A DNA stretch of 64,000 nucleotides from an uncultured Candidatus Binatia bacterium (GCA_964291295.2 OZ219754.1:1632001-1696000), one strand, 5' to 3'; counted from the first letter of the stretch, positions 13,004 to 55,859 are shown. A program made the numbers and translations. The notes: generated by a model from the letters alone, not told the origin.

Positions 13004-13015
13004 ATGGCGAAGGTC

Positions 13016-14299: not shown

Positions 14300-14302
14300 C
14301 CT

Positions 14303-15262
14303 CTACAAAAGCCGCACCAGAGCCGCCACCGGATTGGCGACATTCCGATCTCGAACGTCGTCCATCACCCTGGTGCGGAGAGCGGGGTAGATGGCCCAGC
14401 TTCTCCCGGACTGCTCGTCGATGAACGTGGCGTCGGTCAACGTCACCATCAAACACCCTGATAACCGATCCACGTCGTCAATGAATTCTCGCAGCAACTC
14501 GTAGTGATCCATGGTCATGGCCCGCGTGTAATAGCGCTTTCCGTCCATGGGATTACGAGACAGGGTCACGCGGGTATTATCCAAAAGAAGCACCGTACCG
14601 GAATATCCCGCCTGTCGTACCCAATACAAAGCCGATTCGATGAAATATCGTGCAGTCGTACGATTGATGGGTGTATGAATTTGGAACGGCTTGACATTGC
14701 CAATCCGCGTGTTGGTGCCCGATAGCCAGTCAAGCAGCGGCTGGTCAGCATATCTCTCCGGCCCCGCACTCTCCCTTTCGGAAAGGCAGAGATGCGTCAT
14801 AGCCACCCGGAAGGGCTTGGCCATGTTCGCGTTCTTGATGACCTTTTTCTCCAAGGCTGGTCGCAATTCGATGAGTACGGTCTGAGGTTCGATGTCGTTG
14901 GCTTGAGCCACGGCATTGATTATGTTGGCTGCCCCGTCCGGCTCAATGCCATCGACCGGAAAGGCCGTCTCCGAGAGCAGCCGCAAGACCACCCGACGCG
15001 CAAGCAATCGCCAGTCAATCTGCGAAGCCAGTCCGAAAAAGACATCCTGAGGCATGTGCACACGACTGGCGGTGGCATCCAGCGCAACGAACAGGTACGC
15101 TTGTCCTTCGCAAAGGTTCTTCATACCCTCGACAAGAGCAGGCCGTCGGTCCTCTGCGGTAATCGCAAACTTCACCGCAGCACCGCCGTCCTTGATGAAC
15201 GTGGACAAGTACTCGCGATCCATATGGTCGAGCCAGTCGGCTACCGGGATAGCATTGGTCAT
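14303..15262 (-). CDS. BrxD/DUF2791-like paralogue with degenerate Walker motifs
   Basis: GGAAVKF strand with no following GxxGxGKT; GYSGTVLLLDN in place of LLDE; YELLREFID and YPALRTRV resemble the DUF2791 C-terminus. Confidence 0.65.
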   Translation of the reverse strand: MTNAIPVADWLDHMDREYLSTFIKDGGAAVKFAITAEDRRPALVEGMKNLCEGQAYLFVALDATASRVHMPQDVFFGLASQIDWRLLARRVVLRLLSETAFPVDGIEPDGAANIINAVAQANDIEPQTVLIELRPALEKKVIKNANMAKPFRVAMTHLCLSERESAGPERYADQPLLDWLSGTNTRIGNVKPFQIHTPINRTTARYFIESALYWVRQAGYSGTVLLLDNTRVTLSRNPMDGKRYYTRAMTMDHYELLREFIDDVDRLSGCLMVTLTDATFIDEQSGRSWAIYPALRTRVMDDVRDRNVANPVAALVRLL

Positions 15263-16086
15263 TCGCCACCCTTGCTGAATCGAACACCGTAATATTCGGC
15301 GTTATCGCCGTTTGGCCCAATGAAGGAAAAAAGATCGCTCGAACGTTTCCGGGCACCCGTAGAACTCGGGAACGAAACGGCTGCGCCATCCTTGGTGCGG
15401 CGAGGTCCGTGCGACTCGAGAATGTAGAGGTCGCGGGCAAAGTCGCTTCGACCATAGTCGCGAGCGCTCCCAGGAAGGGCCGTCATCAGCTTGTATATCC
15501 TGGCCAGAGGCATAACACGACCGCTGTCCGGCAAGAGGCCTGAGGAGGATTTCTGGTTTGAGGATGATTTCTTTGCAATCTCTGCAAGGTCGGTATAAAC
15601 AGTATACAACGATTCCAGAAATCGTTGCGATGAAAAGCCGCTGGACTTCTTCTGATTCGTCAGGAGGAGCCCGGCGAGGTAGGACGGCCTTACGGTGGAC
15701 ACCTTCTTTCTGTCCACCATGACCACACGTTCAGCCGGGAGTATCCGTACGATTGACGGGTATGAGATCAAGCTCCCTTCCCGTTCATGAATCTTCAGCC
15801 CCTTTGTGCTCGCGGCAGCCTTGAGTTCTTCGGAGTACTGAGGACCGAACAACTCCTGTTCTCCCTCGCCTGAGAACGGCCAGCAGGAACCGATATTGGA
15901 AACCTCTTGCTGAAGCGTAGCGAGAACTTCGTTCAGTCTCCGCAGGCAGCGTCTTCTGCCGGCAATATCACCGGTTCGGGCAGCTTTCGCCAAAGCGCGG
16001 ATCTGAGAAGAAACGCTGCCGGCGGACTTTAGTGCGTTTTCGGCAGCTCTTTCGGTATCACTACAGGCTTGTTCGAAGCTGACCAC
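15259..16086 (-). CDS. Hypothetical protein, first gene of the BrxD-like/SNF2 operon
   Basis: GGGAGG RBS upstream of GTG 16086; stop overlaps next start (ATGA); helical N-terminus; no family recognised. Confidence 0.75.
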   Translation of the reverse strand: MVSFEQACSDTERAAENALKSAGSVSSQIRALAKAARTGDIAGRRRCLRRLNEVLATLQQEVSNIGSCWPFSGEGEQELFGPQYSEELKAAASTKGLKIHEREGSLISYPSIVRILPAERVVMVDRKKVSTVRPSYLAGLLLTNQKKSSGFSSQRFLESLYTVYTDLAEIAKKSSSNQKSSSGLLPDSGRVMPLARIYKLMTALPGSARDYGRSDFARDLYILESHGPRRTKDGAAVSFPSSTGARKRSSDLFSFIGPNGDNAEYYGVRFSKGGE

Positions 16087-16268
16087 TATCCACACCTCCC
16101 ATGTGGGTCCAGATAACCAACACCATTGATACGAGTTTCTGTTTGGCAACGCAAGAGCCGGATTCCCTGACGAGCATCGGCCGTGCCACCGTCAGTTCGA
16201 TCACGGCGGCCGACGAGCATCCCGTCCATCCGGTGCTGTCGTAGCCTGCCGAGCCTCTTCAAACAGCG

Positions 16269-16440
16269 TCATCCCGTCCATCCTGCCGACAGCGCGTCCG
16301 CCGGTTCGAACATGGAGTGCGTCGTCTTTCCCGCCTGTCCAGTGGGTAGCCAACTGCGCAAGATGCGTTTCACCAGTTGGCGCAGGTTGGCACGGACGGT
16401 CTCGCTCCGTGTCCAGTCGTCGTTGCGGTCCTCGACTGTT
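16269..16440 (-). pseudogene. Relic of type I restriction subunit HsdR C-terminus (DUF3387-like)
   Basis: DWTRSETVRANLRQLVKRILR, then GYPLDRRE in a shifted frame, then ADALSAGW; matches the recalled DWT..ENVRA.LR..VKRILRK.GYPPDKQE..LS..W tail. Confidence 0.7.
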
Positions 16441-16627
16441 GTCCGGCACAGGCCCGGGTTGAGCCGGGCCTGCGCCGGCGTAGACGCTGCCCCAGCAACA
16501 CCACGCCATGGTCTGCACGCTCGGCCATCGGTCCATCGGGGATGATGTCCAGGCCGTGCGCGCGGCCCGGCCGAGGCTCGAAAGCCATTCGAGGGTGCCC
16601 CCTCGACCGTAGATTCTGTGACACGGT

Positions 16628-17392
16628 TCATGCAGCCAACTCATCCCGCGCTTCGTCACGGGTCGACCATGGAACCGGGTTCACCGCATAACTCCGCAGG
16701 GCATCCAGGACGTTCTCGGAAATCTTCTGTTCGGAGTCGTTCAGAATCGCGTAGGCGCGAGCCTCGGAGGAACGTTCTTCTCTGGTGTCAATCCAGGAAA
16801 ATACCATCGCCTGTGCGGCGTCGCGGTTTGGCCGGTTGATGGCACGCAGGACACGTTCAGGCCGAGCTTTCGATTTTGGTATGACAAAATCGAAACGATG
16901 ATCGTAGCCGCTCTTGCCGGTGAATTTGACGCTCGGCGTATAGCGGATATCGGAGAAATCAAACCACGCGGTGACATCCTCGTGAAACAGATGCATGATG
17001 GCAGGTGAGGCCAGATGGAAGAGATCGTTGACCGCCAGCATCGCCTGCACGAGATTGTGCTTCCGTAGAGGAAAATTGTCCGGTGATGCCTTGACTTCAA
17101 GCGCCTTTCCATTCGCCTGTACACCGAATCCGTTCAGCGTCGTCCTGAACATGGCTTGGCGCTTCGGGCTGTCAATCCTGCATCCTGATAATTCGAGATC
17201 TTCGAGAACATGCCCGTCATCCGTCAGCACGAAACCGTTGTCGGCGCGTCTGGCATAAATCTGGAGGTAATCGTTGTGCCGGTCCAGGTACGGTGTTGTG
17301 ATCTCGACGCAGTCTCTCACCTCGCGCAGGTTAGTCTTGTCCTTCAGCCAAGCCCAGTAAAGTTCCACCAGTTTCTGTATGTCCTGGATCAT
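16628..17392 (-). CDS. DUF1828/DUF1829 domain protein (C-terminal restriction-endonuclease-like fold)
   Basis: [46 protein letters not shown] motifs. Confidence 0.8.
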
Positions 17393-17838
17393 ATGAACAG
17401 CCCCGGCCTGATAATGGGCGGCTCGGTGATGCGGCAGAACCGCATGAAGTCTTCGAGCGTCAGCCACGGGTCGTCGAGATTCGGGAAACTGACGGCTGGA
17501 GCCGGAAAGGCCCACTTGTCGCCAAACCCTTCTCGGTAAAGATGCAGGTGAAGGGAACCGACTTCTTTGCCGTCCGGGTTGCGATGCGGTGCCCCACCGA
17601 AATCGAGCCGAGCCAGGGTCCCAGTCTCCCGACCGCGATTCGGGTAGGTTCCTTTCTGGAGGTCAATCCTCGCCCGCCGAAGGTCGAGAAAGAACCGCTC
17701 GCGCCCATTCACTGAGACCAAGGGTGCTGTAAGCCGCCCTCCCAGACCCGGATAGTCCCGCTCGGCAGAGCCCGCACGCCGTTTTTCCATTGCCAGAAGC
17801 GCGTCGGCCTCTGCTTGTGCAAGGCTTGCGTCAGTCAT
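17389..17838 (-). CDS. DUF6978-like protein
   Basis: [42 protein letters not shown]; ATGA-coupled to the DUF1828/29 gene. Confidence 0.7.
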
Positions 17839-21449: not shown

Positions 21450-22088
21450 TCATTCGGCGTCCGGCTGCCGCTCAGGGGCCTGATCCCTGAATGCCGGCAA
21501 TCCCATGCAGTTCTCGTGGATACGAGCCAGGGTCGGGTATCGGTCCAGTTCCACGCCGAAGCGTCGTGCGTTGAAGACCTGCGGTACAAGGCAGATGTCG
21601 GCCAAGGTCGGCCGGTTGCCGAAGCAGTGGTCGCCGGTGCGGGAATCGTCCTTCAGCATGGCTTCCATGGCGGCAAAGCCCTCGTCGATCCAGTGGCGGG
21701 CCCACGCGGCCCGGGCGTCGTCAGCGACGCCCAGCTCGTTCTCCAGGTACTGGAGGACGCGGAGGTTGTTGATCGGGTGAATATCGCAGGCGACGACCTG
21801 CGCCAGCGCCCGGACCCACGCCCGGTCCACCGGTGCCTCGGGCAGAAGGGGCGGCTCCGGCACCCGTTCGTCCAGGTACTCGATGATGGCCAAGGACTGC
21901 ATCAGCACCGCCCCGTCGTCGGCCAGCGCCGGTACGAGGCCCTGCGGATTGCACGCCAGGAACTCCGGCGCCCGCTGCTCGTTGCGGCGCAGATGAACCG
22001 GCTGCAGATGGTAGTCCAGGCCCTTGAGCGACAGCGCGATGCGCACCCGGTAGGACGCGGAGCTTCTGTAGTAGCCGTAGAGCTTCAT
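21450..22088 (-). CDS. maiA: Maleylacetoacetate isomerase (zeta-class GST)
   Basis: MKLYGYYRSSASYRVRIAL, NPQGLVP, QSLAIIEYL, CDIHPINNLRVL. Confidence 0.93.
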   Translation of the reverse strand: MKLYGYYRSSASYRVRIALSLKGLDYHLQPVHLRRNEQRAPEFLACNPQGLVPALADDGAVLMQSLAIIEYLDERVPEPPLLPEAPVDRAWVRALAQVVACDIHPINNLRVLQYLENELGVADDARAAWARHWIDEGFAAMEAMLKDDSRTGDHCFGNRPTLADICLVPQVFNARRFGVELDRYPTLARIHENCMGLPAFRDQAPERQPDAE

Positions 22089-22151
22089 GAATCCTCCGGA
22101 GTTGGCCGGTCCCGGGGTGATACGGCCCGCAAGCCGCATTGCCGCCCATAA

Positions 22152-25100
22152 TCAGGGAGGCGAAAGGACGATATGCGCCGGTCGATGTCTGCTTTCTCCG
22201 AAGTAGAGAGCGCGGAACCTGTCCATCTGCTTGATCCTGTCGATCAGCCCCTTCTCCTGCTTCGAGTTCGAGACGTTCCTGACAAGAAATTTCGCATCTG
22301 CGTCCGTCGAGCGAAAGATGAGATAGTTCGCAACAGCCGAAAATATGGACACATCGAAGTCCCGAGCTTCCTGTGATGCCAATACCAGGGATATGCCGTA
22401 CTTTCGGCACTCCTTCGCCATTGTCGGGATGAGTTTGAGTCGAGCGGCACGGTGTGCTTCGTCGAAGATCAACGCATGAGTGATACGCTTCTGTATTCCT
22501 CGGCGAAACATGTCCTTGTACAGACCGTAGAACACGAGATAGGCAAAAGCTCGTTGCAGGTTGTCGTTTTGTGTCGTGTGGATGCGAATGATGATCGGTC
22601 GTTCATCCTCCCACAAACTGTTCCGTGATCCATCACCGGTTTCAAAGAAACCGTAGTCATCGAGTTCACCCAAACGGGCAAGCAGGGTGCGCAGACCACG
22701 ATCCGGATTTTCGTCGGCATGCAGTATCTCGACGAAACGCTTGAATTCCGGCTCTGGAGCACTCTCGTTTCCGAAGATCCAACCCGCTTCCTCGAAGCTC
22801 TCCTTGATGGCGTGACGAATGCGGTCCGCCTGGATATCTCCCAAGTCCGGAAAGATGGCGGTGAAGATGTCCCGGACGGCCCCGGCAACGTCCAGATGGG
22901 CCATCCGCCCATTTCGATCAATGACTTGCAGCGGGTTAAAGCCAAGTCCGTCGAAGTCGACAAACCGAACTTCCCCGAGCGATTCATGAAGCCGCTCGTC
23001 GATGTCTTGATGGTAGGAAAAGACGACAGGTCGAACGTCCGCAGCGACCATTTTCTTGCACAGATTGACCAGACATGTGGTCTTTCCCATGCCGGGCAGT
23101 CCGGCAATCAGAAGGTGAGGATTGCCGTCTATGCCAAGCCGCCAGTCAACCCCGGCGTTCGTGAGCATGTCTGTGCCCAGGTGCACATCCGGCACACGAC
23201 CGTCCTTGTTGGATAACAAGGCATCCGATGCCTGCCCAGCATCATTCGCTTGTCGAGCGGCAGGTTCGTTTGCGGGAAACGCATGGCTCCCGGTCGACAT
23301 GCTCTCTTCTCGTTGACTCGCTCGTTCCGAAGGAACTGCTCCGGAGTCGCAATTCGAATCCGGGAGAAGACCGGGTCCAAAGAGATATATCTGCGTGGAA
23401 TAGTGATCTGGCGAGATTCTCAGCGGCTGGTGGCCGGAGTATTCCGGGCAGAACAGCCAGCCGCGATCGCTTCTCGTGGTCGATGCGAAGGTATAGTCTC
23501 TGCCCCGTTCGATCATGCGATCGATTTGGTCCATGAGTTCGCCATGGCGCTGGGCCGGAAGACAATGCCTTCGCGCCTTGTCGGCGTAGAAGCGCAGCAC
23601 ACGCGCCAGCTTGGCGCGGCGAATGGCCCGGAACGTCGAGCAGACGTTTTCGCCGCCATACCAGCCCTCCCATTGCTCCCGGAGCGTCTGTGTCTGTTTG
23701 TCGATCTGTTTGAGGATATCCGAGGACCGAGCCGTACGCAGATGACGTCGGAACTTTACCTCGATAAACTGAAAACAGAGGCCCTTGCGGGGCTCCACGG
23801 TCACGTAGATCAGGTCGGGGCGTGTCGCTCTCCCATCCTTGTCCTTGTCTCCCATCAAGGGCGGAAGCAGATCCCTGACATCGTCAACCGGGATGATGAC
23901 TCCGTCCTCAAGCGAGCCCCAGCAGTCGTCGTCTCCCGAGAGGGCTTGGCAGTTGGCGTGGGACATGGCCAGCGCGATCAATTCCGATGTAGGCCGCCTA
24001 TGGCCGGTGAGACGAATGGCAAGTCGGCCGCTAAGGGCTTTCAGATGTCTCAACAGGAACGCGGCGTTGCCGCTGCCGCGGCTCAATCCCATCTGATCGA
24101 GCATGCCGTCGAGCAGGCTGCAGACTTCCTCCAGATTGGCAGTGGATGTAATCAATTGCAGGCACCCGAGGTCTTCACGCTCCGGCACGCAGTCGATGAC
24201 GTATGCGTCGTAGACCGCACGGTTATCCTGCGGTGAGTCGAAATATTCGATGCCGGCGTTCCGGTCCAAGGTGATGAGCCAATCGCAAAGTTGGTGCAGT
24301 TGCTTGAGGCTCTGGCCCTTCTCGGGAGGTACTTCCGTTCTCAATACCGGCAATCTGCCGGTATTTGCGCCGATGTGGCGGGCTACGCCATCCTGAAGAG
24401 CGTGCTGGAGGCGCGCGAGCCACTCGGTATGTGTCCGTCTGGACGGGTGCCTTTCGCCTTCGGAAACCTTGAGAGGGATGCTACTCCATGCGGGTGAAGG
24501 CAGGCTCGTGTAGTACCGCTTGTAGAAGGACAGCAAGCCGAACGCGTGGGGTGGCCCGGAGGCCTCGTCCTCCTTTTCCACGACGACACGGGACTCGAAC
24601 GTATCGAACGCGATCGCCAAGTGCGCCGCGGTGCTTGGATCCGGCTGCTCCTTGCGCGCCCAACGCAGCCGGGGCATGTTGACGCCTCCGGGAAGGCTCA
24701 AGGACTCCAACATCCACCGATCTTCTTCAGCCAGAACCCCTGCTCCACTTCGGCGCTTCTCCCGCGCTTCCGCAATGAACCGTCCCGCGACGCCACGTTG
24801 CTCGGTGGTCGGATAGAGGTCCAACGAGAATATCGGCGCTGTCGCGGTATATTCCTGGCCACCGTCCTGATCCGCATCATCAACATCCTGTCGATAGCGC
24901 CGCTGAACGGTACCGAGCGATCGGGCGACGGTCTGACCGTCGCCGGCGCGTAGCGCATGGATGTGCAGCAGGCGTGACGTGTCGTGACAATCCAGGTACT
25001 TGACGACTTCGTCCGCCAACACTTGGGCGCTCTGGCTGCCTACGGCCGGTATGCTGTCGGCTACCTCGCCGGCGCCGAGCGCGCGCGCCAGGATCGCCAC

Positions 25101-27137
25101 CGCGGCCTTGGGTTCCTTGTCCGTATCTGGCACCATTCCCACCGAATGGAAGCCGAGCATATCAGCGAAGACGAACGCCCCGCCATTGGGGTTGGGAAGG
25201 AACGTGGGGAACATGGCACCGTTCAGGCTCGAAAACTCGGCGCGAATGTCCTTGGGGGCCTGACCTTGGGCGAAGGCCGTATGGAGAACGAGATTGTCGT
25301 AAGCTGCATGCCACGCCACCCGCAACGGGTGGGCAGGCAGGACGATGAGGCCGATGGTGCGTTCAGACAGCGATTGGACTTCCACGGTGTTGGCAAGCGA
25401 CAACAACGGATCGCCGTCTTGCAGGAGCGCAACCCAGGCCCGCAGATACTCGTGGACGATGCGGAATACTCCGGCCATTTCGTCATAAATCTGGCCGACT
25501 CCACCAATCTCGGCGAAGCGGATGGCAAGTTTGCGGCTGGCCGCCGCCACCGATTCCCATGCTTGGCCGTCATCACTCGGAAACGGCTTGAACTCCGGAG
25601 CGCCGGCGCGCTCTCCGGAGCCGCGCACGGTGACTATCCACCGGCCAATTCGGCCTTCTCTCTTCACCCATTGACTTTCGACCTCGGCAATCAGCGAGGG
25701 CCTGAAGACACGAAAGCTCTTTCGTCGGCCCTGTTCGACGGGCGTTCGCAACAGGATGATGCCTTTGTTGGAATCGGTGGTCACGCCGGAAGACGGAGAT
25801 GAGACAATCGCCGAGACGGCTTCGCGACTTTCGAGTTCGGCAAGCCCTTCGCTGAGTGTCCGAACCTTCGTGCCAACGCCTCCGGTTTCCTGCTTCGGCG
25901 GGTCTCCGAAGCGAATAACAAACTCCTCGCTTTCCTGGCGCTCGAATTCAGCCTTGTCGACAACTTCAACCGTGACTTTAGCCGACAGCCGTGCGTTTTC
26001 ATCCAGAATCTGGAAATCGTCTTCCGTGAAGCGATGTTTCTCCCCACCTTTTCGTGCAGAGTGCGGGACTTGCTCGCTTGCGATCTCTTCACCCTGATCC
26101 GTTTCGACAACAACACGATAGTCCGCTGCGTTCTTTTCGAGACGAGCCGGCTCAATCTTCCACCTGATCTCCAGAATCGAAGAAGGGCCGCTCTTGTCTG
26201 CATCTCCTCTGAGGATGAGTTCGGGAGGATTGTCTGCACCGCCGTCCTCGACCAAGCCGGACCACCGGGCGACGGTACCGTTCCGGTTTCGCCAGGAGGT
26301 TAGTTCGATATGCTGGATCGACTGTGCCGGAGGTTCGGTACGCAGATTACCGATCCACAGGGTTTCTTTCTCGGCCAACGTTTCCAGCGCGGTACGCAGC
26401 GGCTTGGTATCTACTGAATGGAGGAAGCGCTCAAGGTTGTTGATTTCGGTCTCCGAACTCCGATCGAACCGTACTGCGTCGATGCGCGTCGCTGGTGCCA
26501 AGCTCGCGCCGGCAGTCCCCAACAGGCGATCGACCAACATGCGCGAAGTGTCGAGGTCATCCGGAAAACTCGAGCCTTTCGAATGCCGGATGGGCCAAAG
26601 ACCAAGTAAATGCAAGTAAGATCCCGGCCATTTGCTACCCGCGGCGACTTGGCAGAGGAAGTCGAACTCCGCCCATCGCGACAGGGCGTACCTGCCGCGG
26701 CGTCCTCGCGCCTTTTTGATCGCCTGCTCGGCGTATCGACGATCCTCCGAAGAGTGGCTCGTTGTGATCTGACGGAGCGCCAAGCGCCCCGCCTCCTGAA
26801 ACAGCGCTACTTCACCCACTTCCCGGGCAGCGCTGTAGATGCTGTCCATTCCGGCACCGGCATGTGCAGTGTCAATCAGAAGCAGGACGGCATCGCCCTT
26901 CGCCTCGCGTATCTCTACCGCACGATCGGCGGTGACGGTCCGTTCTCCGGCATCTTCCCTGTCTGCCACCATCAGCACTTGCCAACCGGAAGGCGCAAAG
27001 GATCGATCCGCGGCGAGCGCTTTCACTACACCCGGCGTCAAGCAGCGCACAAAGGCCATAGTGCCAGGTAGGGAAGCGCCGAGTACTTTGCCGAGCGCCT
27101 TTGCGAGTACCTTGCCGTGAAGTCCCGTCCAGTGCAT
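22152..27137 (-). CDS. Large defence ATPase, MAD8/DndH-like (PD-(D/E)xK nuclease + HerA/FtsK-type ATPase)
   Basis: RPDLIY...FIEVK nuclease motif; C-terminal NPHLLIAGLPGMGKT, FNPL, FDEAHR, KECRKYGISLVLASQ. Confidence 0.78.
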   Translation of the reverse strand: MHWTGLHGKVLAKALGKVLGASLPGTMAFVRCLTPGVVKALAADRSFAPSGWQVLMVADREDAGERTVTADRAVEIREAKGDAVLLLIDTAHAGAGMDSIYSAAREVGEVALFQEAGRLALRQITTSHSSEDRRYAEQAIKKARGRRGRYALSRWAEFDFLCQVAAGSKWPGSYLHLLGLWPIRHSKGSSFPDDLDTSRMLVDRLLGTAGASLAPATRIDAVRFDRSSETEINNLERFLHSVDTKPLRTALETLAEKETLWIGNLRTEPPAQSIQHIELTSWRNRNGTVARWSGLVEDGGADNPPELILRGDADKSGPSSILEIRWKIEPARLEKNAADYRVVVETDQGEEIASEQVPHSARKGGEKHRFTEDDFQILDENARLSAKVTVEVVDKAEFERQESEEFVIRFGDPPKQETGGVGTKVRTLSEGLAELESREAVSAIVSSPSSGVTTDSNKGIILLRTPVEQGRRKSFRVFRPSLIAEVESQWVKREGRIGRWIVTVRGSGERAGAPEFKPFPSDDGQAWESVAAASRKLAIRFAEIGGVGQIYDEMAGVFRIVHEYLRAWVALLQDGDPLLSLANTVEVQSLSERTIGLIVLPAHPLRVAWHAAYDNLVLHTAFAQGQAPKDIRAEFSSLNGAMFPTFLPNPNGGAFVFADMLGFHSVGMVPDTDKEPKAAVAILARALGAGEVADSIPAVGSQSAQVLADEVVKYLDCHDTSRLLHIHALRAGDGQTVARSLGTVQRRYRQDVDDADQDGGQEYTATAPIFSLDLYPTTEQRGVAGRFIAEAREKRRSGAGVLAEEDRWMLESLSLPGGVNMPRLRWARKEQPDPSTAAHLAIAFDTFESRVVVEKEDEASGPPHAFGLLSFYKRYYTSLPSPAWSSIPLKVSEGERHPSRRTHTEWLARLQHALQDGVARHIGANTGRLPVLRTEVPPEKGQSLKQLHQLCDWLITLDRNAGIEYFDSPQDNRAVYDAYVIDCVPEREDLGCLQLITSTANLEEVCSLLDGMLDQMGLSRGSGNAAFLLRHLKALSGRLAIRLTGHRRPTSELIALAMSHANCQALSGDDDCWGSLEDGVIIPVDDVRDLLPPLMGDKDKDGRATRPDLIYVTVEPRKGLCFQFIEVKFRRHLRTARSSDILKQIDKQTQTLREQWEGWYGGENVCSTFRAIRRAKLARVLRFYADKARRHCLPAQRHGELMDQIDRMIERGRDYTFASTTRSDRGWLFCPEYSGHQPLRISPDHYSTQIYLFGPGLLPDSNCDSGAVPSERASQREESMSTGSHAFPANEPAARQANDAGQASDALLSNKDGRVPDVHLGTDMLTNAGVDWRLGIDGNPHLLIAGLPGMGKTTCLVNLCKKMVAADVRPVVFSYHQDIDERLHESLGEVRFVDFDGLGFNPLQVIDRNGRMAHLDVAGAVRDIFTAIFPDLGDIQADRIRHAIKESFEEAGWIFGNESAPEPEFKRFVEILHADENPDRGLRTLLARLGELDDYGFFETGDGSRNSLWEDERPIIIRIHTTQNDNLQRAFAYLVFYGLYKDMFRRGIQKRITHALIFDEAHRAARLKLIPTMAKECRKYGISLVLASQEARDFDVSIFSAVANYLIFRSTDADAKFLVRNVSNSKQEKGLIDRIKQMDRFRALYFGESRHRPAHIVLSPP

Positions 27138-27138
27138 G

Positions 27139-28956
27139 TCAATCATCCATCCGAGGTTCAAAGCGAGGCCGTAGCCGTTTCATCGCCTCGGCATCGTTGA
27201 CGCCGACCAGAAGTCCCAGGTCTCGCAGACGACGTTCCAGCACCACACGGTTCGAGCGGAGAAGATCATTGGAGATCGTCATGCCCGGAGGCGCGGAATC
27301 GACGTGGAAGCCGTATCGCTCGCGGATTCTGTCCAGGAATTCCTTCAATGAGAGCGGTTTCACATTTGGCTTGTAGCCACTCCGAAGAAGGTGAAGGTGA
27401 ACCAGATAATCCAGAACCGGGTCGGTAAGAACCAGCGATCGAACTTCTCGCTGTCTCCTTCCGCGTCCAGTCGTATGGGCACCACTTGTGGTCTTCCGTT
27501 TGCGCGCCAGACCGTTCGGCCGCTCCACATTCAGCGTCGAGTCGACCATGGAAATGGTATTGCCCCGCGCTTTGGTTCCCAAGAGCGGCGTCAGCGCTGC
27601 GGCGAGGCGCCGGACTGGATGCGGCTCATTCTGCTCGTTGTCCAACACCCTCTCGGCTTCTGGATAGTCATCCTTCAATTCCTCTGCCAGTTCTGCGCCG
27701 TATTTGTACATTTGACGATGAATGTTCCCCGCTTCCGGGTGGCGCTTGTGGAGCAGTTCACCGAGCAGGTTGAGCCATGATGTGGCGTAGGGCCGAATCG
27801 GGCTTGGATCTTTTTTCAATTCCTCCTTTAATTCCCTATTGTACCTCGCCTCGTAATCAAGCAGACGCAGCATCATCAGGATGGCGGGGACCCGTTCAAC
27901 GCGACGCATGAGGTCATCGAAAGACTGTTCGGCCAGGCCCCGCAATCGGCCATCAATGCCGTTCGAACAGTCAACGAACATGCTTGCGGGTCGCTGAAAC
28001 CGTTTTTCGATGACACTACCTGTATCGGCCCATTCAAACAGGATTTCGATGACGCTGGTGAGGATCGTCGTCATTCCTGTCGCGATACACGCCTCAAGCA
28101 TATCGACGAATGCATGACGAGGGATAACCGCCGCATAGGCGCGGACGAAACGGCGCATGTCTTCCGAGAAAGTCGACGCCGCATTTTCCGCGATGGGACG
28201 TTGATTGGAGATTTTGGCGCTGTCCGATCCCCGCATCTTGTCGGGCGCTGCGCCTAACTTCTGCGCCAGCCGGATCATCAACAGCTGATCGATCCCAAGG
28301 TCCACAAAAGACTCTTTGAATTCGTCTCCCGCTAAGTTGCCCTTCAGATTGCTTCGCTGGACGCCGTGACTGAATGCTCTCAGAAGCAGGTTCTTGGTAT
28401 GTTCTCCAGCGATTGGAAACAATGTCGGTTTTCCTTCTTTACTCGGTTCTACATGTAGCCCGTCTTGGTTCGCCAGCATTGCGACAATCATCTCCGGTAC
28501 GGACCGAAGGTGTGTCACACTCTCCGGAAGGTCGACCCAGCTTGCCATATAGTGGGCTGGGGCAACCCGCTGAATCTGCTTGTCTCTACCGAGACTGTGG
28601 TTGATGTTCTCAAGACTGAAACCTAGTAGTAAATCGCCGAGTATTGCTTGTTCAACTCTTCCGTCAAAGCCGTGTAGATCGGGGCTGGCCGCCAATTCTT
28701 CCGCGACTCGCCCGATGGTCGTCGCTTTCCTGCGATCTCTGGGGCTACCGGCCGTTGGACCAAAAGCCTCCAGAAACTGGCCTTTACCGCGTCGATGGCC
28801 GAATCGAAGCATGTAGAACACGGCCGGCAGCACCGCTGCGAGTTCGAACAAGTTGAACGAGATCGGCAGTACCTTGTCATACCGTGCCGACCAGATTTCG
28901 TCCGCCATTCGCGGGGAGAGTACCTTCCGAACTATGGTGCGGGCGCTATCGGCCAT
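27139..28956 (-). CDS. MAD7/DndG-like defence protein
   Basis: Middle gene of tightly spaced trio; C-terminal LKEFLDRIRERYGF...LERRLRDLGLLVGVNDAEAM resembles DndG/MAD7 ends; no catalytic motif seen. Confidence 0.65.
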   Translation of the reverse strand: MADSARTIVRKVLSPRMADEIWSARYDKVLPISFNLFELAAVLPAVFYMLRFGHRRGKGQFLEAFGPTAGSPRDRRKATTIGRVAEELAASPDLHGFDGRVEQAILGDLLLGFSLENINHSLGRDKQIQRVAPAHYMASWVDLPESVTHLRSVPEMIVAMLANQDGLHVEPSKEGKPTLFPIAGEHTKNLLLRAFSHGVQRSNLKGNLAGDEFKESFVDLGIDQLLMIRLAQKLGAAPDKMRGSDSAKISNQRPIAENAASTFSEDMRRFVRAYAAVIPRHAFVDMLEACIATGMTTILTSVIEILFEWADTGSVIEKRFQRPASMFVDCSNGIDGRLRGLAEQSFDDLMRRVERVPAILMMLRLLDYEARYNRELKEELKKDPSPIRPYATSWLNLLGELLHKRHPEAGNIHRQMYKYGAELAEELKDDYPEAERVLDNEQNEPHPVRRLAAALTPLLGTKARGNTISMVDSTLNVERPNGLARKRKTTSGAHTTGRGRRQREVRSLVLTDPVLDYLVHLHLLRSGYKPNVKPLSLKEFLDRIRERYGFHVDSAPPGMTISNDLLRSNRVVLERRLRDLGLLVGVNDAEAMKRLRPRFEPRMDD

Positions 28957-28966
28957 GAGCCACCCC

Positions 28967-31900
28967 CTACGATTCAGACCGCGAGATCACTATACGTTGT
29001 CGAGGACCGGAGCCAGAATCTTCGGTGCGTGCCGAAACCTCGAATGTCGTGGTTTCTGCCCTCGGATTCCAGGCCAGCATCCTACGATGGTCCTCACGAG
29101 TGAGACGTTGTACGAAGATCGAGAGATGCGCAAAGGTGTCATCTGCCGCCGCGTCGCCCAATTGATAGCCGTCATTGAGTTCCAGTAGGAGATCAAACAG
29201 GTCGGCGCCGAGGCGCAGGCGTTCTTCGCTTCCATCGTGGTAACGGTAGATCAGGTACGCTTGGCGATGGAGCCAGTCCAAGCCCTCTACCCTTTTCTTC
29301 TCGGCTTCCAGGCGAAAATTGGTTACGGATTTCTCGACCCAGAAAGCCGTCTCCGTCGGTGTTCTGGGCGTGACGCGCAATGGCACCATGCCGGGTCGCT
29401 CCAAAGCCTTTGGCGGAAGCGCCTCCAGACGGGAAATGCCACGGCAAAGGTCCCGTATCAGAGCCTTCACATTCTCACTCGGTGGGTCGACAGCAAGGTT
29501 ACGAAATTGACGCAGATGCCGCCCGTGGGCCAGACCGAACGCATCGGGATCGCCCGTCAGCCGTTCAATCTCCTCCCGGCCCAACACGAAATAGGCCTGG
29601 CGTCGGAGAAACTCGAGGCTCTTCGTCCCGTCACGCTGCGAAACATCACCGATATCGGCACCTCGCTGCAGATGAAGCAGGTGACGGTCGATCTGCGGCT
29701 GCGCTTCAAGGGCGGGGTCGAAATGTGGCAGTTCGCTCAGCAATTCACCCTGCCGCCCCGTTGACTCGGGCGAGAAGGCGCGGTCCCAGTAGGGATGAGG
29801 CGTCGATGCGTCGGAGCCGTCCGTGGCATCGTGATACTCGCTGCAGTAATGTACTCCAAAGAGGATATAGACCAGCGCGGCTCGCAATTCGCGGACGGTG
29901 ATATGGACCTCGCCTCGCAGATGTACGGCCTGCAACGCCTCGAACAGCCGGCCACGAGCGTGGTCGCGAATGGATTTTTCCGAGAGGTCGCCCGGGCCGA
30001 AGCGTTTGGTGGCGCGGAAGACCTCGCAGCGTTCCCGGGCCGAGCAAGTGCGACAGGGAGTCCAGATTTCCGCAGCGCGTTCGCCGCCGTACAGCTTGTC
30101 CACCAGACGACCAAGAAAGTCGGTGGCGATGACCTTGTCGTCGTCGGCGATATCGCCAACCAGCGAACGATGGTTCAGATCGAAGAACCGGATATGGGAT
30201 CCGGAACTTGGAGCAACGTTCTCGAGAAGGTCGGAAAGGTTCCTTGTCAACGACGACTCGCCTTGGTCTCCTTCGACGGACTCGACCCACTCAAGGAGCC
30301 GGCCATCGTTGATGGCCAGCAGATGGACGATATCCTCGTCCGGCGGGCCGTGCCGGAACGGCGCCAGGAATTCGTTCAGAAGATCGTCCGCAGAACGACC
30401 CTGCCATGACGCCGAGCCGTCGAGATTCATGCGCACGGTCAAGCCGTCGTCCAACTGCCCCTCAATGATGCGCGTCGCCGAAGTCTGGACATCCAGGCGA
30501 AGTCTCTTTGCGAGGCGCTGAAGCAGGGCAGTCTTCCCGTCGCCGGCATTGCCGCAGAGGATCACGAGGTTCGCTTTGCGCTCCTTGATGTCCCCAAATA
30601 GTTCTCGCTCCAGGCGGGTTTCGACATACGTCTCCTCGGCAAAGTCACTGTCCATGCCACGTGTCTCGCTGTTGCCCCACCGCGATCCAGGATAGGACTG
30701 TAGCAACAACTTGAGCCAATCTACCTCCTGTTCCGTTAGCCCCTCCCTCGCATCGGTCGGCTGTGCCGCTTCCTCCGCATCGGCGACGCGGGCCACATCC
30801 CCATGGGTGGTGACTATCGATCGGTTCCCGACATGCCTGGATGGACTCAAGATCGCTAGTGCGTCCGCGACGCTGGCAATGCGCTCATCCGGGTTCGGGC
30901 TCGTGGCCCGATCAAGGAACCCTGCCAGCGATGGATCGTCCTCCCGGTCGATCCCGGTCCAGTTCAATCCGCGTTCCTTGGCCAGAACACCGTCGTATTG
31001 AAACGGTTCCCTATCGAACAGCACGTGAAAGAAACTCGCAGCCAATGCATAAAGGTCGTCGGACGGCTTCGCGGCATCGTGTTCAAGAAACGAAGGCGAG
31101 CAGTACGGTACCGTGCCAGGTGCGTCTGGCGGAACGCCGATCCTGGTCACGCAGTCATAGTCGGTCAGCACGAGATCAGGACCGGAAACGATGATGTTAC
31201 GCGGACTGATGTCGCCGTGCACCAGGCCGTTGTCGTGCAGTACCCGCAGCGCCTCGCATGTTGTCCGCAGCCAGCTTCTGGCCAGAGCCTCGTGGGAGTC
31301 CTCTCCCCGATCTTCGGCAAGAAGCGGCAGCATACCGGAGTACTCCCGCAGCGGCTCGCCCTCGACCCAGGTCATCAAGGCAACGAAGCCGTTATCCCGC
31401 CATTCTGATGCGACCTCCAAGATCATTGACAAAGCTGAGTGACGAAGATGTGAGCGCGCCAGCTTGTAGGCTCCAAGCACCCTCCGCCCGGTTTGCCCAT
31501 CGCGGGCTACCTTGGCGACATAGGTGCCGAGATCATCTTTTGTTTCTCGATCCACTTCCACGACCTTGAAAGTCGTTCCTACTCCACCGGAACCAAGACG
31601 CGAGACGATTCGATAGTCGTTTGCTCCGAAAGAGACGACTTGGTCCTCTGTCCAGAACCTCGCCGGTGGTGGCGGCGGTTCCGGCGGCGGCTCGCCCAAC
31701 TGTTCGGAGAACAGCGCTTCCAGTTTCGACAGGCTGCTTCTCTCCGCGGGATCGTTGCCCATTCCCAAGGTCAGAATTTCCGTAGCCTTGACGCTGATGG
31801 CATCTTCCTGACCCTCGAACAGCACTGCAAGCGAAGCGCATAACGAATAGACGTCGGACCGATGATCTGCCGCTCCGCGGCCCTGGGCGCGAACCTCGGG

Positions 31901-33004
31901 AGATACTGCGGCATCCCAATCTGTCGCGGTGGCAGGGGAAGCCACGGAGACATCCGTCGGAATCCGGGCATGCTCGAAACCAGTCAGGATCGGCGAGTTG
32001 TCGTGTCTGACCAGGATTGTGCACGGCGTCAGGTTCCGGTGAACCATGGGTTCGCCGTCCACGCCCGACTCGTGGAGGTCGATCACCGCTCGAACCGCGC
32101 CTCGCGCGAAATTTGACCGAGCGACGGCATCCCACGCGTCGTCGCGGGCGCGTTCCTGCAGGCCAGGTGCGGCGGGGTCCGCCACCGTGAAGAACTTGAT
32201 CTCACCCGGATATCCCGGCGCGTCCTGAAACGAGTCGACGATACGCGGCGCCCAGCCATGCTGTTGAAGCCGTTGAAGTGCCCTCCACTCGCGTTCCGCT
32301 TTCTGTGCAGCCTTCGTGTCATCCACTGAAAGGTCGTAAAGATGCAGCACTACCGGATCCTGCCGAGATGCATGGGTCGCCTTGTATATTCGATGAAAGT
32401 GTTGGTCCAGGGGTGTCTGGAGAGTCAGACGTGTGTAACCAGCCATTCGCTTCAGGGTACCATCAATGGCGACGGCGCTCGTGGGCTCCAAGGCGCGGGC
32501 CAACCGTTGGACCTGCTGTGCGGATAGCACATGCGTCGCATGGAATCCGACTGCATCGCGCCAAGTCTTGAACGTGTGGAAGGGAACACCGCGAACAGGT
32601 TCCTGGTCCTCAAGGGCTGTGACCTTGGAAGCCGCCTCGGTCACCAGAAACACACCGTCCACCCGTGGCAGACCCTCAACCTGTCTGCGCAGCGTTGTGC
32701 CGACCCTGCGTGCCTTGTGGGTGACGCGTCCCGCTTCCTGCTCAACAAGTTCGGAGTTGCGATGGACCCATGCCGCAGTCCAGTGCTTGACTTCGATGAC
32801 TTGGACCCCGGATGGGCCGATAGCGACAATGTCAATCTCGTCAGACTGCCGACGGTTTTCCGCAGAGAAGGCCAAGTTTGTCAATAATATCCACTCGTCG
32901 CCTCCGGGTTCGGAAATCAGGCGACTTCTGATTTGCTCGAACGCCTTGCGCTCGCTCTCGTTGACAGTCGGCCCGCACGGAACATGGTGCACGTTCATGG
33001 CCAC
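28967..33004 (-). CDS. NERD nuclease + two Ser/Thr kinase-like domains + DndF-like P-loop (MAD6/PglW-like)
   Basis: NERD: SE..EIDIVAIGPSGVQVIEVKHW; kinase 1: HRNLTP/TGF; kinase 2: GSGGVG, VAK, HGDISPRN, DYD; P-loop CGNAGDGKT, AINDGRLL. Confidence 0.85.
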   Translation of the reverse strand: MAMNVHHVPCGPTVNESERKAFEQIRSRLISEPGGDEWILLTNLAFSAENRRQSDEIDIVAIGPSGVQVIEVKHWTAAWVHRNSELVEQEAGRVTHKARRVGTTLRRQVEGLPRVDGVFLVTEAASKVTALEDQEPVRGVPFHTFKTWRDAVGFHATHVLSAQQVQRLARALEPTSAVAIDGTLKRMAGYTRLTLQTPLDQHFHRIYKATHASRQDPVVLHLYDLSVDDTKAAQKAEREWRALQRLQQHGWAPRIVDSFQDAPGYPGEIKFFTVADPAAPGLQERARDDAWDAVARSNFARGAVRAVIDLHESGVDGEPMVHRNLTPCTILVRHDNSPILTGFEHARIPTDVSVASPATATDWDAAVSPEVRAQGRGAADHRSDVYSLCASLAVLFEGQEDAISVKATEILTLGMGNDPAERSSLSKLEALFSEQLGEPPPEPPPPPARFWTEDQVVSFGANDYRIVSRLGSGGVGTTFKVVEVDRETKDDLGTYVAKVARDGQTGRRVLGAYKLARSHLRHSALSMILEVASEWRDNGFVALMTWVEGEPLREYSGMLPLLAEDRGEDSHEALARSWLRTTCEALRVLHDNGLVHGDISPRNIIVSGPDLVLTDYDCVTRIGVPPDAPGTVPYCSPSFLEHDAAKPSDDLYALAASFFHVLFDREPFQYDGVLAKERGLNWTGIDREDDPSLAGFLDRATSPNPDERIASVADALAILSPSRHVGNRSIVTTHGDVARVADAEEAAQPTDAREGLTEQEVDWLKLLLQSYPGSRWGNSETRGMDSDFAEETYVETRLERELFGDIKERKANLVILCGNAGDGKTALLQRLAKRLRLDVQTSATRIIEGQLDDGLTVRMNLDGSASWQGRSADDLLNEFLAPFRHGPPDEDIVHLLAINDGRLLEWVESVEGDQGESSLTRNLSDLLENVAPSSGSHIRFFDLNHRSLVGDIADDDKVIATDFLGRLVDKLYGGERAAEIWTPCRTCSARERCEVFRATKRFGPGDLSEKSIRDHARGRLFEALQAVHLRGEVHITVRELRAALVYILFGVHYCSEYHDATDGSDASTPHPYWDRAFSPESTGRQGELLSELPHFDPALEAQPQIDRHLLHLQRGADIGDVSQRDGTKSLEFLRRQAYFVLGREEIERLTGDPDAFGLAHGRHLRQFRNLAVDPPSENVKALIRDLCRGISRLEALPPKALERPGMVPLRVTPRTPTETAFWVEKSVTNFRLEAEKKRVEGLDWLHRQAYLIYRYHDGSEERLRLGADLFDLLLELNDGYQLGDAAADDTFAHLSIFVQRLTREDHRRMLAWNPRAETTTFEVSARTEDSGSGPRQRIVISRSES

Positions 33005-33164
33005 ATGCTACGCGATTCGGATGGTCAAATCCAGACGGTTGCAGTCACGACGGTGCTATGGAGTGGGGATGCAGCGGGGACCGTCACCCATTTGATTCCA
33101 TTGGTGAATTCGTCCAGCGTCTTGTTCACGGAACCCGGTGTTCATCCTGATCGTACAGCATGAT

Positions 33165-33192
33165 ATTGTAATATTCGATATGAAACTGAAAA
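33165..33192 (-). promoter_or_regulatory. Candidate sigma70 promoter for the kinase/ATPase module
   Basis: Minus strand TTTTCA-16 bp-TACAAT within a very AT-rich patch ~160 bp upstream of the start. Confidence 0.35.
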
Positions 33193-33326
33193 ATTGGCGA
33201 CATGATCTGTCGGAATCGAATAGCCATGCGGATCCTGGCCTCCTGCCAGCCACCGAAGCGAACCGCGCCGTGCCGTTGACAGCCGCTTGCATTTGTCTGA
33301 TAGTCCGCCGGGACATGGCTGAATGT

Positions 33327-33372
33327 CCGGTCGCGGAGACCCGGTCGCGGAGACCCGGTCGCGGAGACCCGG
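33327..33372. repeat. Tandem repeat, 14-bp unit CCGGTCGCGGAGAC x3
   Basis: Three exact copies just upstream of the amidohydrolase RBS. Confidence 0.9.
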
Positions 33373-33399
33373 CCACCGAGGCCCAGGGGAGGAGAGCCA

Positions 33400-34506
33400 A
33401 TGAAGAAGACGGATGTCGTGGATGCGGACTCGCACGTCATGGAGGTTCCCGGGACCTGGGATTATCTGGGCGAGGAGTTCCAGCACAGAAGGCCGGTGGT
33501 GGTGCAGGGCGAGGGGCTGGCCACCAACGCGCTCATTGATGCGTGGTGGCTCATCGACGGTCAGATTCATCCCCGCTTGTGGGGACCGGGCACGACGTTC
33601 AGCGGTACGCCGCTGGAGATGAAGTTCGCGCGGGACAAGATATTCGACATCGGCAGTCAGGGCATGACCGACATCGATGCCCGCATCAAGGATCTGGACG
33701 CCTTCGGCATCGACATCCAGGTGATCTATTCCTCCATCCTGTTCCATCGCCTCACCGAGGATCCCCGATTCGAGGCCGCCTTGATGCGGAGCTACAATAC
33801 CTGGATCTCCCAGCGCTGCGGCGAGCGTCCCGAGCGCATCAAGTGGGCCGCGGTCATTCCCATGCGGGATCGCGAAGCCTGCGTGGCCGAGGTCCATCGC
33901 GCCCGGGAGCTGGGTGCGGTGGGCCTCATGATCGGCGGCACCGCCGGCCAGACCCTGCTGCACCACCCCGACCTGACGCCTTTCTACGAGGCAGCGTGCG
34001 CGGTGGACCTGCCGGTGTGCATCCACACGGGCTGGAGCGTGCCGGGCCTGACGCAGACCTGCGAGGACCCCTACGCGTCGCTGATCCTGAGCTTTACCCT
34101 GCCGGTGTTGATGGGTTTCTTCAGCATCCTGGGCGGCGGCGTGCTCGACCGCCATCCGAAACTCCGGGTGGCTTTTCTGGAGGCGGGTTCCGAGTGGATC
34201 CCTTACATGGTGGGGCGGATGGATCACTACCACCCGGTGGTGGCGATGTTCGGCAACCGTTCCAGGAGACCGCCTGGCGACTACCTCGCTGAAGGGCGGG
34301 TGTACGTGACCTGCGAGGCGGAGGAGGCGCTGCTGCCCCAAGTCATCGATCTCGTGGGCGAAGACCAGATTCTCATCGAGGGCGACATCCCCCATGCCGA
34401 AGCCCGGGAAACCGGCATCGAGGAACTCCGTCAACGCACCGACATCTCCGAGCGGGTCAAGCAGAAGATCCTGCGCGAGAACGGCCTGGCGTTCTACCGG
34501 CTGTGA
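33400..34506 (+). CDS. Amidohydrolase_2 family protein
   Basis: DADSH, CIHTG, GGVLDRHPKLRVAFLEAG, DIPHAE. Confidence 0.9.
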   Translation: MKKTDVVDADSHVMEVPGTWDYLGEEFQHRRPVVVQGEGLATNALIDAWWLIDGQIHPRLWGPGTTFSGTPLEMKFARDKIFDIGSQGMTDIDARIKDLDAFGIDIQVIYSSILFHRLTEDPRFEAALMRSYNTWISQRCGERPERIKWAAVIPMRDREACVAEVHRARELGAVGLMIGGTAGQTLLHHPDLTPFYEAACAVDLPVCIHTGWSVPGLTQTCEDPYASLILSFTLPVLMGFFSILGGGVLDRHPKLRVAFLEAGSEWIPYMVGRMDHYHPVVAMFGNRSRRPPGDYLAEGRVYVTCEAEEALLPQVIDLVGEDQILIEGDIPHAEARETGIEELRQRTDISERVKQKILRENGLAFYRL

Positions 34507-55656: not shown

Positions 55657-55859
55657 CCAACCGCGTGTTTTGGGATAGAAAAAGCGAGTTGATGTCGGAA
55701 CCCCTTGGCCAGGATAGGCAAGGGTGGTTTCAGCATATTACTGGGATCGAGTATCCTCCCCGCAGCCAGCCTCTCGGGATACTTCAAGTGAGCCGGCGTC
55801 GGTTGGCTCCACATCCAGCGCTTGTGGAAGGCCTCTCGCACTTGAGGGACCGCCGATGA
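55653..55859 (+). CDS. Small hypothetical protein (68 aa)
   Basis: GTGA overlap with the hsdS stop and ATGA overlap with the next start; no family recognised. Confidence 0.4.
   Translation: MTNRVFWDRKSELMSEPLGQDRQGWFQHITGIEYPPRSQPLGILQVSRRRLAPHPALVEGLSHLRDRR

Follow-up and report, generated by a model that had tools for sequence, protein, structure and literature searches.

A DndFGH/MAD6-MAD7-MAD8-class gene trio without adjacent modification genes in an uncultured Candidatus Binatia bacterium

The canonical DndFGH modules of E. coli and Salmonella are dependent on phosphorothioate (PT) modification. In the sections cited here of the comparative study of Rakesh, Aravind and Krishnan (2024, PMC10853773; Rakesh et al. 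below), components of DndFGH are recorded in 1798 taxa and all eight dnd genes together in 316, and DndFGH is proposed as a stand-alone system. These sections also describe DndF variants that carry NERD with inactive and active S/T/Y kinases, the N-terminal NERD/kinase domains being read as suicidal co-effectors, and give the order of DndH as a superfamily 2 (SF2)-type inactive P-loop with a helix-turn-helix (HTH), two beta-sandwiches, a target recognition domain (TRD), an inactive methyltransferase with a nested TRD, a restriction endonuclease and HerA/FtsK. The NERD-kinase DndF architecture and the stand-alone status are restated by the same group in the cited part of a later paper (PMC12839542), and the cited part of another study describes nickase and translocase activity for the DndFGH complex (PMC11662687). 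For the MADS system, the portion of the preprint used here gives N6-methyladenine (m6A) as the self-marking modification and lists MAD6-8 as mandatory genes of the detection model. Here we compare with these systems a three-gene cassette, called F, G and H in this text, that occupies positions 22152-33004 of a 64,000-nt stretch of the chromosome of an uncultured Candidatus Binatia bacterium (GCA_964291295.2 OZ219754.1:1632001-1696000); this whole stretch is referred to as the window.

The initial annotation of the window treated the cassette as an orphan, on the premise that MADS and DndFGH effectors normally depend on a linked self-marking module. For DndFGH this premise is out of date, given the 316 taxa with a full gene set against the 1798 with DndFGH components in the cited sections of Rakesh et al. 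(PMC10853773). A cassette of this kind has already been described computationally in that study, and the one examined here is a further member. We consider it probable that the cassette is a complete, horizontally acquired and self-contained defence operon of the DndFGH/MAD6-MAD7-MAD8 class, which stands alone and functions independently of a mark. Under this reading, what the three genes encode is the 'restriction half' of MADS-type and Dnd-type systems, kept and passed on by itself.

Genes F, G and H and their described relatives

ORF analysis of the window shows that F, G and H are three intact, translationally coupled open reading frames (ORFs) on the minus strand. The genes and their domains are as follows.

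28967-33004, minus strand: gene F, 1345 aa, likely start ATG 32998; NERD, pseudokinase, Ser/Thr kinase, DndF/SspF-like P-loop and C-terminal domain
32735-32959, minus strand: NERD PD-(D/E)xK nuclease domain of F (residues 16-90); Pfam NERD 7.7e-10; D58/E71/K73
31685-32407, minus strand: pseudokinase of F (about residues 200-440), with HRN for HRD and GFE for DFG
30845-31624, minus strand: active-type Ser/Thr kinase of F (residues 461-720); Pfam Pkinase 5.3e-24
29675-30640, minus strand: DndF/SspF-like P-loop with lid and Cys cluster of F (residues 789-1110); PADLOC SspF 2.2e-16
27139-28956, minus strand: gene G, 605 aa, MAD7 family
22152-27161, minus strand: gene H, 1669 aa, likely start ATG 27146; DndH/MAD8-like
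25896-26321, minus strand: predicted beta-sandwich of H (about residues 281-422), from the AlphaFold2 (AF2) model and VIA-align
24126-25121, minus strand: predicted class I S-adenosylmethionine (SAM)-methyltransferase fold of H without catalytic motif (about residues 681-1012), from the AF2 model and VIA-align
23754-23816, minus strand: PD-ExK motif of H (D1116 ... E1134-V-K1136), kept in 61-62 of 66 homologues
22167-23225, minus strand: HerA/FtsK-type ATPase of H (residues 1313-1665), from PADLOC and PDB matches

F and G are separated by 10 nt, with a GGGGGTGG stretch preceding the start of G, and G and H overlap, the candidate ATG of H at 27146 overlapping the stop of G. Because the alignments of homologues begin at F residue 3 and at H residues 4-9, the starts are probably ATG 32998 for F and ATG 27146 for H. 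The initial annotation had described three intact, tightly spaced large genes with two predicted nuclease sites, a kinase pair and two P-loops. All of these are found: the spacing is the 10-nt gap followed by the overlap, the nuclease sites are D58/E71/K73 in the NERD domain of F and D1116/E1134/K1136 in H, the kinase pair consists of the HRN/GFE pseudokinase and the active-type kinase, and the P-loops are GNAGDGKT in F and GLPGMGKT, accompanied by DEAH, in H. The likeness to MAD6/7/8 and DndF/G/H that it proposed also holds in comparisons with hidden Markov models, with matches to MADS6, MADS7, SspF, DndH and mad8.

Conservation was scored in full-length homologues from 80 related loci (59 for F and 66 for H), with truncated or split ORFs dropped. 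In F, the NERD residues D58, E71 and K73 are kept in 58-59 of 59 homologues and N324 of the pseudokinase in 57 of 59, while the second kinase, a region that matches PknA in the PDB (4.5e-9), keeps K498, D598, N603 and D615 in 56-57 of 59. The P-loop core has PADLOC SspF as its best match (2.2e-16, 57 bits). Walker A (GNAGDGKT), N860/D862 and N899 are present in 59 of 59 homologues and C984/C987/C993 in 58-59, and the stretches N860-L-D862 and I-N899-D900 are invariant or nearly so. With motifs assigned to strands by sequence only, F appears to have every element of the described DndF core, namely a canonical Walker A, an Asn where Walker B would have its Asp, the acidic motif of strand 2, the large and optionally Zn-binding lid, and the C-terminal domain. 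Its architecture is identical to that of the described NERD-kinase DndF variant, and the order of the three genes is the same as in DndFGH. The curated models give lower scores. F residues 8-402 match NCBIfam MADS6 (NF047741) at 2.2e-46 with 158.6 bits against a cut-off of 460, and F is thus not MAD6 at the equivalog level; the match to NCBIfam DptF (TIGR03238) is weak (2.7e-4, 19.9 bits against a cut-off of 50) and covers the Walker A region only.

The NERD-pseudokinase-kinase front of F is shared with proteins of other defence systems, as it matches PADLOC MkoA of Mokosh (6.7e-34), PD-T4-6 (4.3e-27) and PglW of BREX type 2 (7.2e-11). The C-terminal parts and partner genes of these systems differ from F-G-H, and among the immediate neighbours scanned we found none of their Pfam families, in a scan that included no search aimed at PglX, PglZ or MkoB. 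The recurrence of this front end, together with the suicidal role given to it in the cited sections of Rakesh et al. (PMC10853773), favours an explanation in which the trio is mainly an abortive-infection device, with a kinase that phosphorylates host or phage proteins once infection is sensed, a NERD domain that degrades DNA indiscriminately and the nuclease-motor of H in a secondary role. However, at least four loci (L040, L052, L053 and L071) combine complete G and H with F variants of 606-652 aa that lack the NERD-kinase part, which indicates that this part is an add-on to a working core, and the nuclease and motor motifs of H are as conserved as the motifs of F. We therefore regard the abortive-infection explanation as quite unlikely.

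G matches NCBIfam MADS7 at 2.8e-46 over positions 8-529 of 529, with 158.7 bits against a cut-off of 410, and it carries the precomputed Pfam family PF26611, named MAD7 by Atlas, as do 120 of 120 homologues among the matches listed. Its membership of PF26611 and its score relative to the cut-off place G in the MAD7 family but not among the equivalogs. PADLOC returns mad7 at 9.4e-12 and a weak match to SspG at the C-terminus (4e-3, 14 bits). No family in the local Pfam copy matches G, and a sequence search of the PDB finds no relative. The structure predicted for DndG, its counterpart in DndFGH, is that of a triple winged-helix protein.

By sequence, H matches known families at its C-terminus only (PADLOC DndH 2e-18, mad8 3.4e-18 and HerA 1.9e-10), and in the PDB it matches the DptH ATPase domain alone (7es4, 1.5e-7). 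Walker A (GLPGMGKT), DEAH and Q1597 are kept in 65 of 66 homologues. The remainder of H was examined by folding the protein with AF2 in two parts, from alignments of 60-61 homologues. In the model of residues 6-600, with a predicted local distance difference test (pLDDT) score of 88.6, the sandwich aligns by VIA-align with Z up to 8.8 (root-mean-square deviation (rmsd) 3.4, 102 aligned), GH2 sandwich domains being among the rows, and the model as a whole resembles the RecA2/helical/Ig cassette of the SF2 helicase Brr2 (8.6e-6, among the top Foldseek matches). In the model of residues 560-1320 (pLDDT 78), 50 of 50 VIA-align rows span the methyltransferase part, with Z up to 8.8, rmsd 3.8 and 201 aligned; most of the rows are SAM-dependent methyltransferases, and the few others include GRAS proteins and a fatty-acid-synthase region. 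A Foldseek search of the pdb with this part gives nothing at E <=0.001 and weak methyltransferase rows only (E 0.011). The motif [DNS]PP[YFWH] is absent from the whole of H in a motif scan, and so the methyltransferase fold is most likely catalytically dead. An ESM Atlas search with residues 1-1310 returned unnamed clusters only.

The order seen in H, at middling Z, thus runs from a beta-sandwich through a methyltransferase fold without motif IV and a PD-ExK site to HerA/FtsK with its Q sensor, and is compatible with the published order of DndH; the TRDs and the second beta-sandwich of that order are not resolved in the models of H. The cassette is also decoupled from dndABCDE, as published for most taxa. 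It differs from curated DndFGH in that the PADLOC DndH models match the C-terminal ATPase of H only and that DptG (TIGR03236) and DptH (TIGR03237) give no match at E <=0.01. The absence of TIGR03237 from all five cassette genomes searched shows little, since it is likewise absent from 14 of 14 control genomes. Compared with SspFGH, the cassette shares the SspF match of the F core and the weak SspG match of G, but H has no SspH match and the genome has no sspABCD set. In three loci whose titles name Bryobacterales (L036, L043 and L046), similarity to H is lost after about residue 1270, the C-terminal ATPase being different or absent, and two genes upstream (about 965 and 228 aa) are common to these three loci and found in no other. 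The HerA/FtsK module may have been exchanged here, in the way that Rakesh et al. describe.

We compared the cassette with genuine MADS loci, which were taken from 400 genomes drawn from one phylum, four of which had MAD7 over the NCBI cut-off. In three of the four loci, the gene before MAD7 (1379-1407 aa) matches the core of F with E 9e-27 to 3e-30 and about 30% identity, and the gene after MAD7 (1804-1831 aa) matches H 604-1228 with E of about 1e-23 to 1e-26; in two of these three, MAD6 also matches the kinase part of F. An HsdM-like ORF lies within a few kb in each of the four loci, at a distance of 1.4-3.4 kb upstream of MAD6 in three of them, which indicates that methylase detection works where a methylase is present. 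The fourth locus (L129, G188:C140), with MAD7 at 410.6 bits, has a short F (643 aa) and G followed downstream by a 721-aa HsdM-like methylase, and no H-like match is found in the 20 kb around it. By these similarities MAD6-7-8 is itself a DndFGH-type trio of the same architecture, and the family described here represents its counterpart without a methylase. Among NCBIfam models the cassette matches MADS7 and MADS6 best, and the gene order and overlaps are the same as in MADS. The cassette differs in that it lacks mad1-5 (regulator, m6A methylase, OLD-like ATPase-nuclease and S subunit), in that G and F score far under the MADS7 and MADS6 cut-offs, at 21-30% identity, and in that it has no known cognate mark, whereas MADS marks self by m6A. 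Both the shared architecture and direct similarity thus connect MAD6-8, the effector half of MADS, with the DndFGH class. Among the matches listed by a literature search we found no paper naming MAD6 or MAD8 alongside DndH, DndFGH or DptH, although the MADS supplement may already draw this connection.

Distribution and neighbourhoods of the three-gene family

A search with G yields 1266 protein clusters at E <=0.001 among 7999 candidates scored. The 80 related loci were found through G in species-representative genomes, all of them metagenome-assembled, whose titles name about a dozen phyla. F, G and H are colinear in 80 of 80 loci wherever the contig allows, with 37-73% identity to the genes of the cassette, and the identities of the three genes correlate with each other across 73 loci (r 0.93-0.97). 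This correlation and the colinearity indicate that the trio moves as a unit. At closer range, homologues of G occur in three of 24 same-genus genomes, at 61-71% identity, and in none of 16 other genomes of the order. The trio is also present on a conjugative plasmid of Rhizobium phaseoli, pRphaR630c, where G is 42% identical. There it lies inside a defence island with SIR2, an S8 peptidase with an FRG protein, insertion sequence (IS) elements and a type ISP enzyme as neighbours. The PGAP names of the three plasmid proteins are 'NERD domain-containing protein kinase family protein', 'hypothetical protein' and 'ATP-binding protein', and with annotations such as 'hypothetical' or 'ATP-binding' these proteins are probably missed in censuses of defence systems.

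To describe the neighbourhoods, we clustered 616 ORFs from flanks of about 6 kb upstream and 5 kb downstream. There is no conserved neighbour: the largest flank cluster is present in 5 of 80 loci, all of which are syntenic relatives. Among flank ORFs of at least 150 aa, 23 of 1153 contain motif IV of methylases, a C5 motif or a PP-loop motif, and Pfam assigns four of the 23 to N6_Mtase, two to N6_N4_Mtase and one to a C5 methylase. The same motif prefilter and Pfam detect no PAPS-reductase in the flanks of the 80 loci. An independent tblastn search with ten methylases of this genome has matches in 6 of 80 loci. Taking the union of both counts, at most 9 of 80 loci have a methylase, and at least 71 are methylase-free. 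The methylase-free trio is therefore the rule in this gene family, not the exception that the word 'orphan' in the initial annotation implied, and the survey of homologue neighbourhoods which that annotation had proposed finds the methylase-free arrangement recurring.

No hypervariable block is found in F, G or H, where identities in 50-residue windows are mostly 0.45-0.8. This is a poor fit with the diversifying sequence specificity seen in restriction-modification (R-M) systems, although it is a weak point. In six loci (L031, L032, L075, L088, L089 and L095) G is matched by two or three pieces spread over about 3.5 kb, which suggests a tandem duplicate of G or a gene inserted between F and H.

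Modification genes and the question of self-protection

A scan of the neighbouring genes in the window finds no methylase, HsdS or dnd/ssp gene adjoining the cassette, in agreement with the initial annotation. The nearest modification genes belong to a complete Type I R-M system at 50466-55656, 17.5 kb away. On the plus strand of the window at 50466-57544, an EcoAI-like HsdR, HsdM and HsdS are followed by a 606-aa AAA_15/AAA_21 OLD-like ATPase (AriA/GajA/mad3-like), and a short AAA_23 ORF lies at 57819-58370. We considered this region as a split MADS module and rejected it, because it comes with an HsdR of its own and because the scores of its HsdM, HsdS and ATPase against MADS2, MADS5 and MADS3 are 129, 27 and 59 bits, far under the cut-offs of 720, 400 and 420. 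The mad2 model PDLC04134 is unusable as a specific probe, because it matches generic SAM methyltransferases in 14 of 14 control genomes.

In the genome as a whole, which is 99% complete, DndE, DndD and SspD are not found, and there is no linked DndD-DndE core at the cassette, as there would be in a Dnd R-M system. Only two PAPS-reductase genes are present, one of them in an island of lower GC at C1:770692-779057 (L107 8693-17058). This island encodes a DndA/SspA-like cysteine desulfurase, DndC, a DUF262 protein (PADLOC 'Orf5'/HEC-06), the C-terminal half of an SNF2 helicase, a ParB-like protein, a 236-aa ORF and a metallo-beta-lactamase-type nuclease, and may be a non-canonical sulfur-modification or defence system. 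The genome-wide search for modification genes that the initial annotation called for thus gives a divided answer: unlinked DndA-DndC and N6_Mtase matches are present, and DndD, DndE and any linked marker are not.

The co-occurrence of PT genes with the cassette was assessed in 50 of the 80 cassette genomes. Ten of these have DndC and 16 a strong SspD match (>190 bits), or 17 at the E cut-off; 27 of the 50 have neither. All of the DndC and SspD matches are more than 100 kb from the cassette, so that SspD is unlinked in all 16 of the genomes that have it, which is a further difference from SspFGH. Within the genus, SspD is found in 10 of 27 genomes, mostly ones without the cassette, and in one of four cassette carriers. 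Since DndC and SspD are patchy and unlinked, and SspD is independent of the cassette, there is no sign of a required PT partner. A short DndC similar to that of the island (about 335 bits) is found in 5 of the 50 cassette genomes.

These unlinked genes are the basis of an alternative in which the trio acts as a restriction effector and reads an epigenetic mark that host genes elsewhere supply, either Type I-like m6A or DndA-DndC sulfur, as in a split MADS or Dnd-Dpt system. The genome offers candidates for such a mark in six strong N6_Mtase (HsdM-type) matches, the Type I R-M system 17.5 kb off, and the DndA with a short DndC (337.9 bits, cut-off 290.4) about 880 kb from the cassette, but the HsdM, HsdS and ATPase of the window are far below the MADS cut-offs and have their own HsdR, and DndD, DndE and SspD are missing from this genome. 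DndC or SspD is present in 23 of 50 cassette genomes, a high share, but the other 27 have neither, none is linked, and SspD is as common in the genus without the cassette. The predicted methyltransferase-fold domain of H could read a modified site, and in the cited portion of the MADS preprint, where self is marked by m6A, mad6-8 are required together with mad2-4; against this, the cassette crosses phyla as three genes without a conserved partner. We judge the borrowing of an unlinked mark to be rather unlikely, though it has to be reckoned with.

The candidate marks in this genome, the share of cassette genomes with DndC or SspD and the requirement in MADS all weigh against independence from a mark, and several limits of the comparisons weigh in the same direction. 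About a fifth of the loci are short-flanked, at least 4 kb upstream being available in 62 of 80 and at least 3 kb downstream in 67 of 80. The methylase prefilter depended on motif IV, and methylases are too common for co-occurrence to bear on methylase dependence. The structure matches are middling (Z <=8.8), the SF2-like resemblance of the N-terminal part of H does not come from that domain compared alone, and the association of the three proteins in a complex is only inferred. Of the two possibilities left by the initial annotation, modification independence or a borrowed mark, the evidence narrows towards independence; the question is not settled, as the genome holds candidate unlinked marks.

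In the mechanism that we propose for an independent cassette, F, G and H would act together on DNA as one machine, forming a complex by analogy with DndFGH. A structure prediction of the F P-loop and lid (750-1110) with G scored 0.00 and makes no call either way. The MAD7/DndG-like G, together with the dead-methyltransferase, beta-sandwich and SF2-like parts of H, would bind DNA, the HerA/FtsK motor of H would translocate it, and the PD-ExK site of H would nick or cut it, on the analogy of the activities described for the DndFGH complex in the cited part of PMC11662687. Sensing and regulation would fall to F, which would gate the complex through its DndF-type nucleotide-binding P-loop and the pseudokinase-kinase pair and whose NERD nuclease may be a second or back-up effector. 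Self-protection would most likely lie in the trigger, with the machine activated by an infection cue or by a state of the invading DNA, and not in a dedicated co-inherited epigenetic mark. We extend this tentatively, as an idea that falls a little short of probable, to the class as a whole: the trio would be an autonomous immune machine able to distinguish invading DNA from self without an epigenetic mark, in which the P-loop and kinase switch license the HerA/FtsK-driven nuclease on an infection cue or on DNA in transit, and MADS and Dnd-Dpt would have arisen later, when this machine was joined to a marking module of the R-M or the PT type.

Comparative genomics has raised the question of how DndFGH-type modules without a co-inherited phosphorothioate or methyl mark avoid self-damage, and this family is a clean natural case in which to ask it, as it consists of three genes only, extends over about a dozen phyla, conserves all catalytic sites and has a homologue on a plasmid of a cultivable Rhizobium.

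Insertion site and integrity of the cassette

The position of the cassette can be compared with the empty site of a same-genus genome (G010), which defines the following features.

22099-33389, no strand: inserted segment, 11,291 bp compared with the empty site of G010
33005-33389, minus strand: upstream non-coding region acquired with the cassette, containing a lower-GC stretch and a promoter-like site at 33192-33165
21450-22139, minus strand: GST/maiA-like gene flanking the cassette
33400-34506, plus strand: Amidohydro_2 gene flanking the cassette

In blastn against G010, homology stops at window position 22098 and restarts at 33390, and the 11,291 bp between these ends correspond to 327 bp in G010. 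The GC content is 59.0% in the cassette, 64.8% and 67.0% in the flanks and 66.2% in the chromosome. Among same-genus orthologues of the flanking genes, the distance from the glutathione S-transferase (GST) to the amidohydrolase is 344 bp in G010, 251 bp in G022, 1.6 kb in G014 and 7.5 kb in G003; in G023 this comparison found no GST orthologue. The cassette is a horizontally acquired insertion into an otherwise empty intergenic site, and its flanks are the maiA gene and the divergent amidohydrolase named in the initial annotation. We also considered the site as a defence hotspot. This is unsupported, as the different 7.5-kb insert that G003 holds there consists of metabolic genes (TRAP transporter, aminotransferase, SDR and HTH-cupin).

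An explanation of the trio as a silent or decaying remnant, or as an assembly artefact that splits a canonical MADS or Dnd locus, is largely refuted, and we regard it as very improbable. Decay had been named in the initial annotation as a finding that would speak against its reading. The ORFs are intact and the active sites conserved, and in contigs from a second sample the cassette differs by 14 substitutions, of which 8 are synonymous and 6 are not, while its ORFs are free of indels. Short-read contigs of run X1, which may be the source sample of the assembly, span the junction of GST and H as well as the region upstream of F. From these observations the module is not decaying and not an assembly artefact, and the same three-gene layout is found in 80 other genomes. 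On the other side stands the promoter evidence, which is a consensus match only. Upstream of F is a stretch of 40-50% GC at 33125-33244, and one promoter-like hexamer pair lies at 33192-33165 on the minus strand. The AT-rich, promoter-like region of the initial annotation therefore stands as far as composition and this one site are concerned, but the promoter scan found 3 sites in the region where 3.2 are expected, which is not above chance, and the result of the terminator scan was likewise not above chance.

Some smaller features of the locus were seen. H stops 12 nt before the start of the GST gene, which lies on the same strand, and the interval (22139-22152) contains no terminator-like site, which means that GST may be read through from the cassette; in relatives, GST has its own divergent intergenic region. 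GST may now rely on the cassette for its transcription. A 14-nt unit is present three times immediately before the start of the amidohydrolase gene (33305-33389), and the second sample has one copy fewer, left out at 33327, as well as small deletions of 14 and 7 nt at 21267 and 21325, to the left of the GST gene. Elsewhere in the window, a second defence-like island of lower GC occupies 10916-17515 on the minus strand and encodes an SNF2 helicase (ZorD/DpdE-like, 8e-76), a 296-aa ORF of unknown kind, a BrxD-like ATPase split over the ORFs 13016-14299 and 14303-15262, and a PDC-M24B DUF1828/DUF1829 protein (7e-104).

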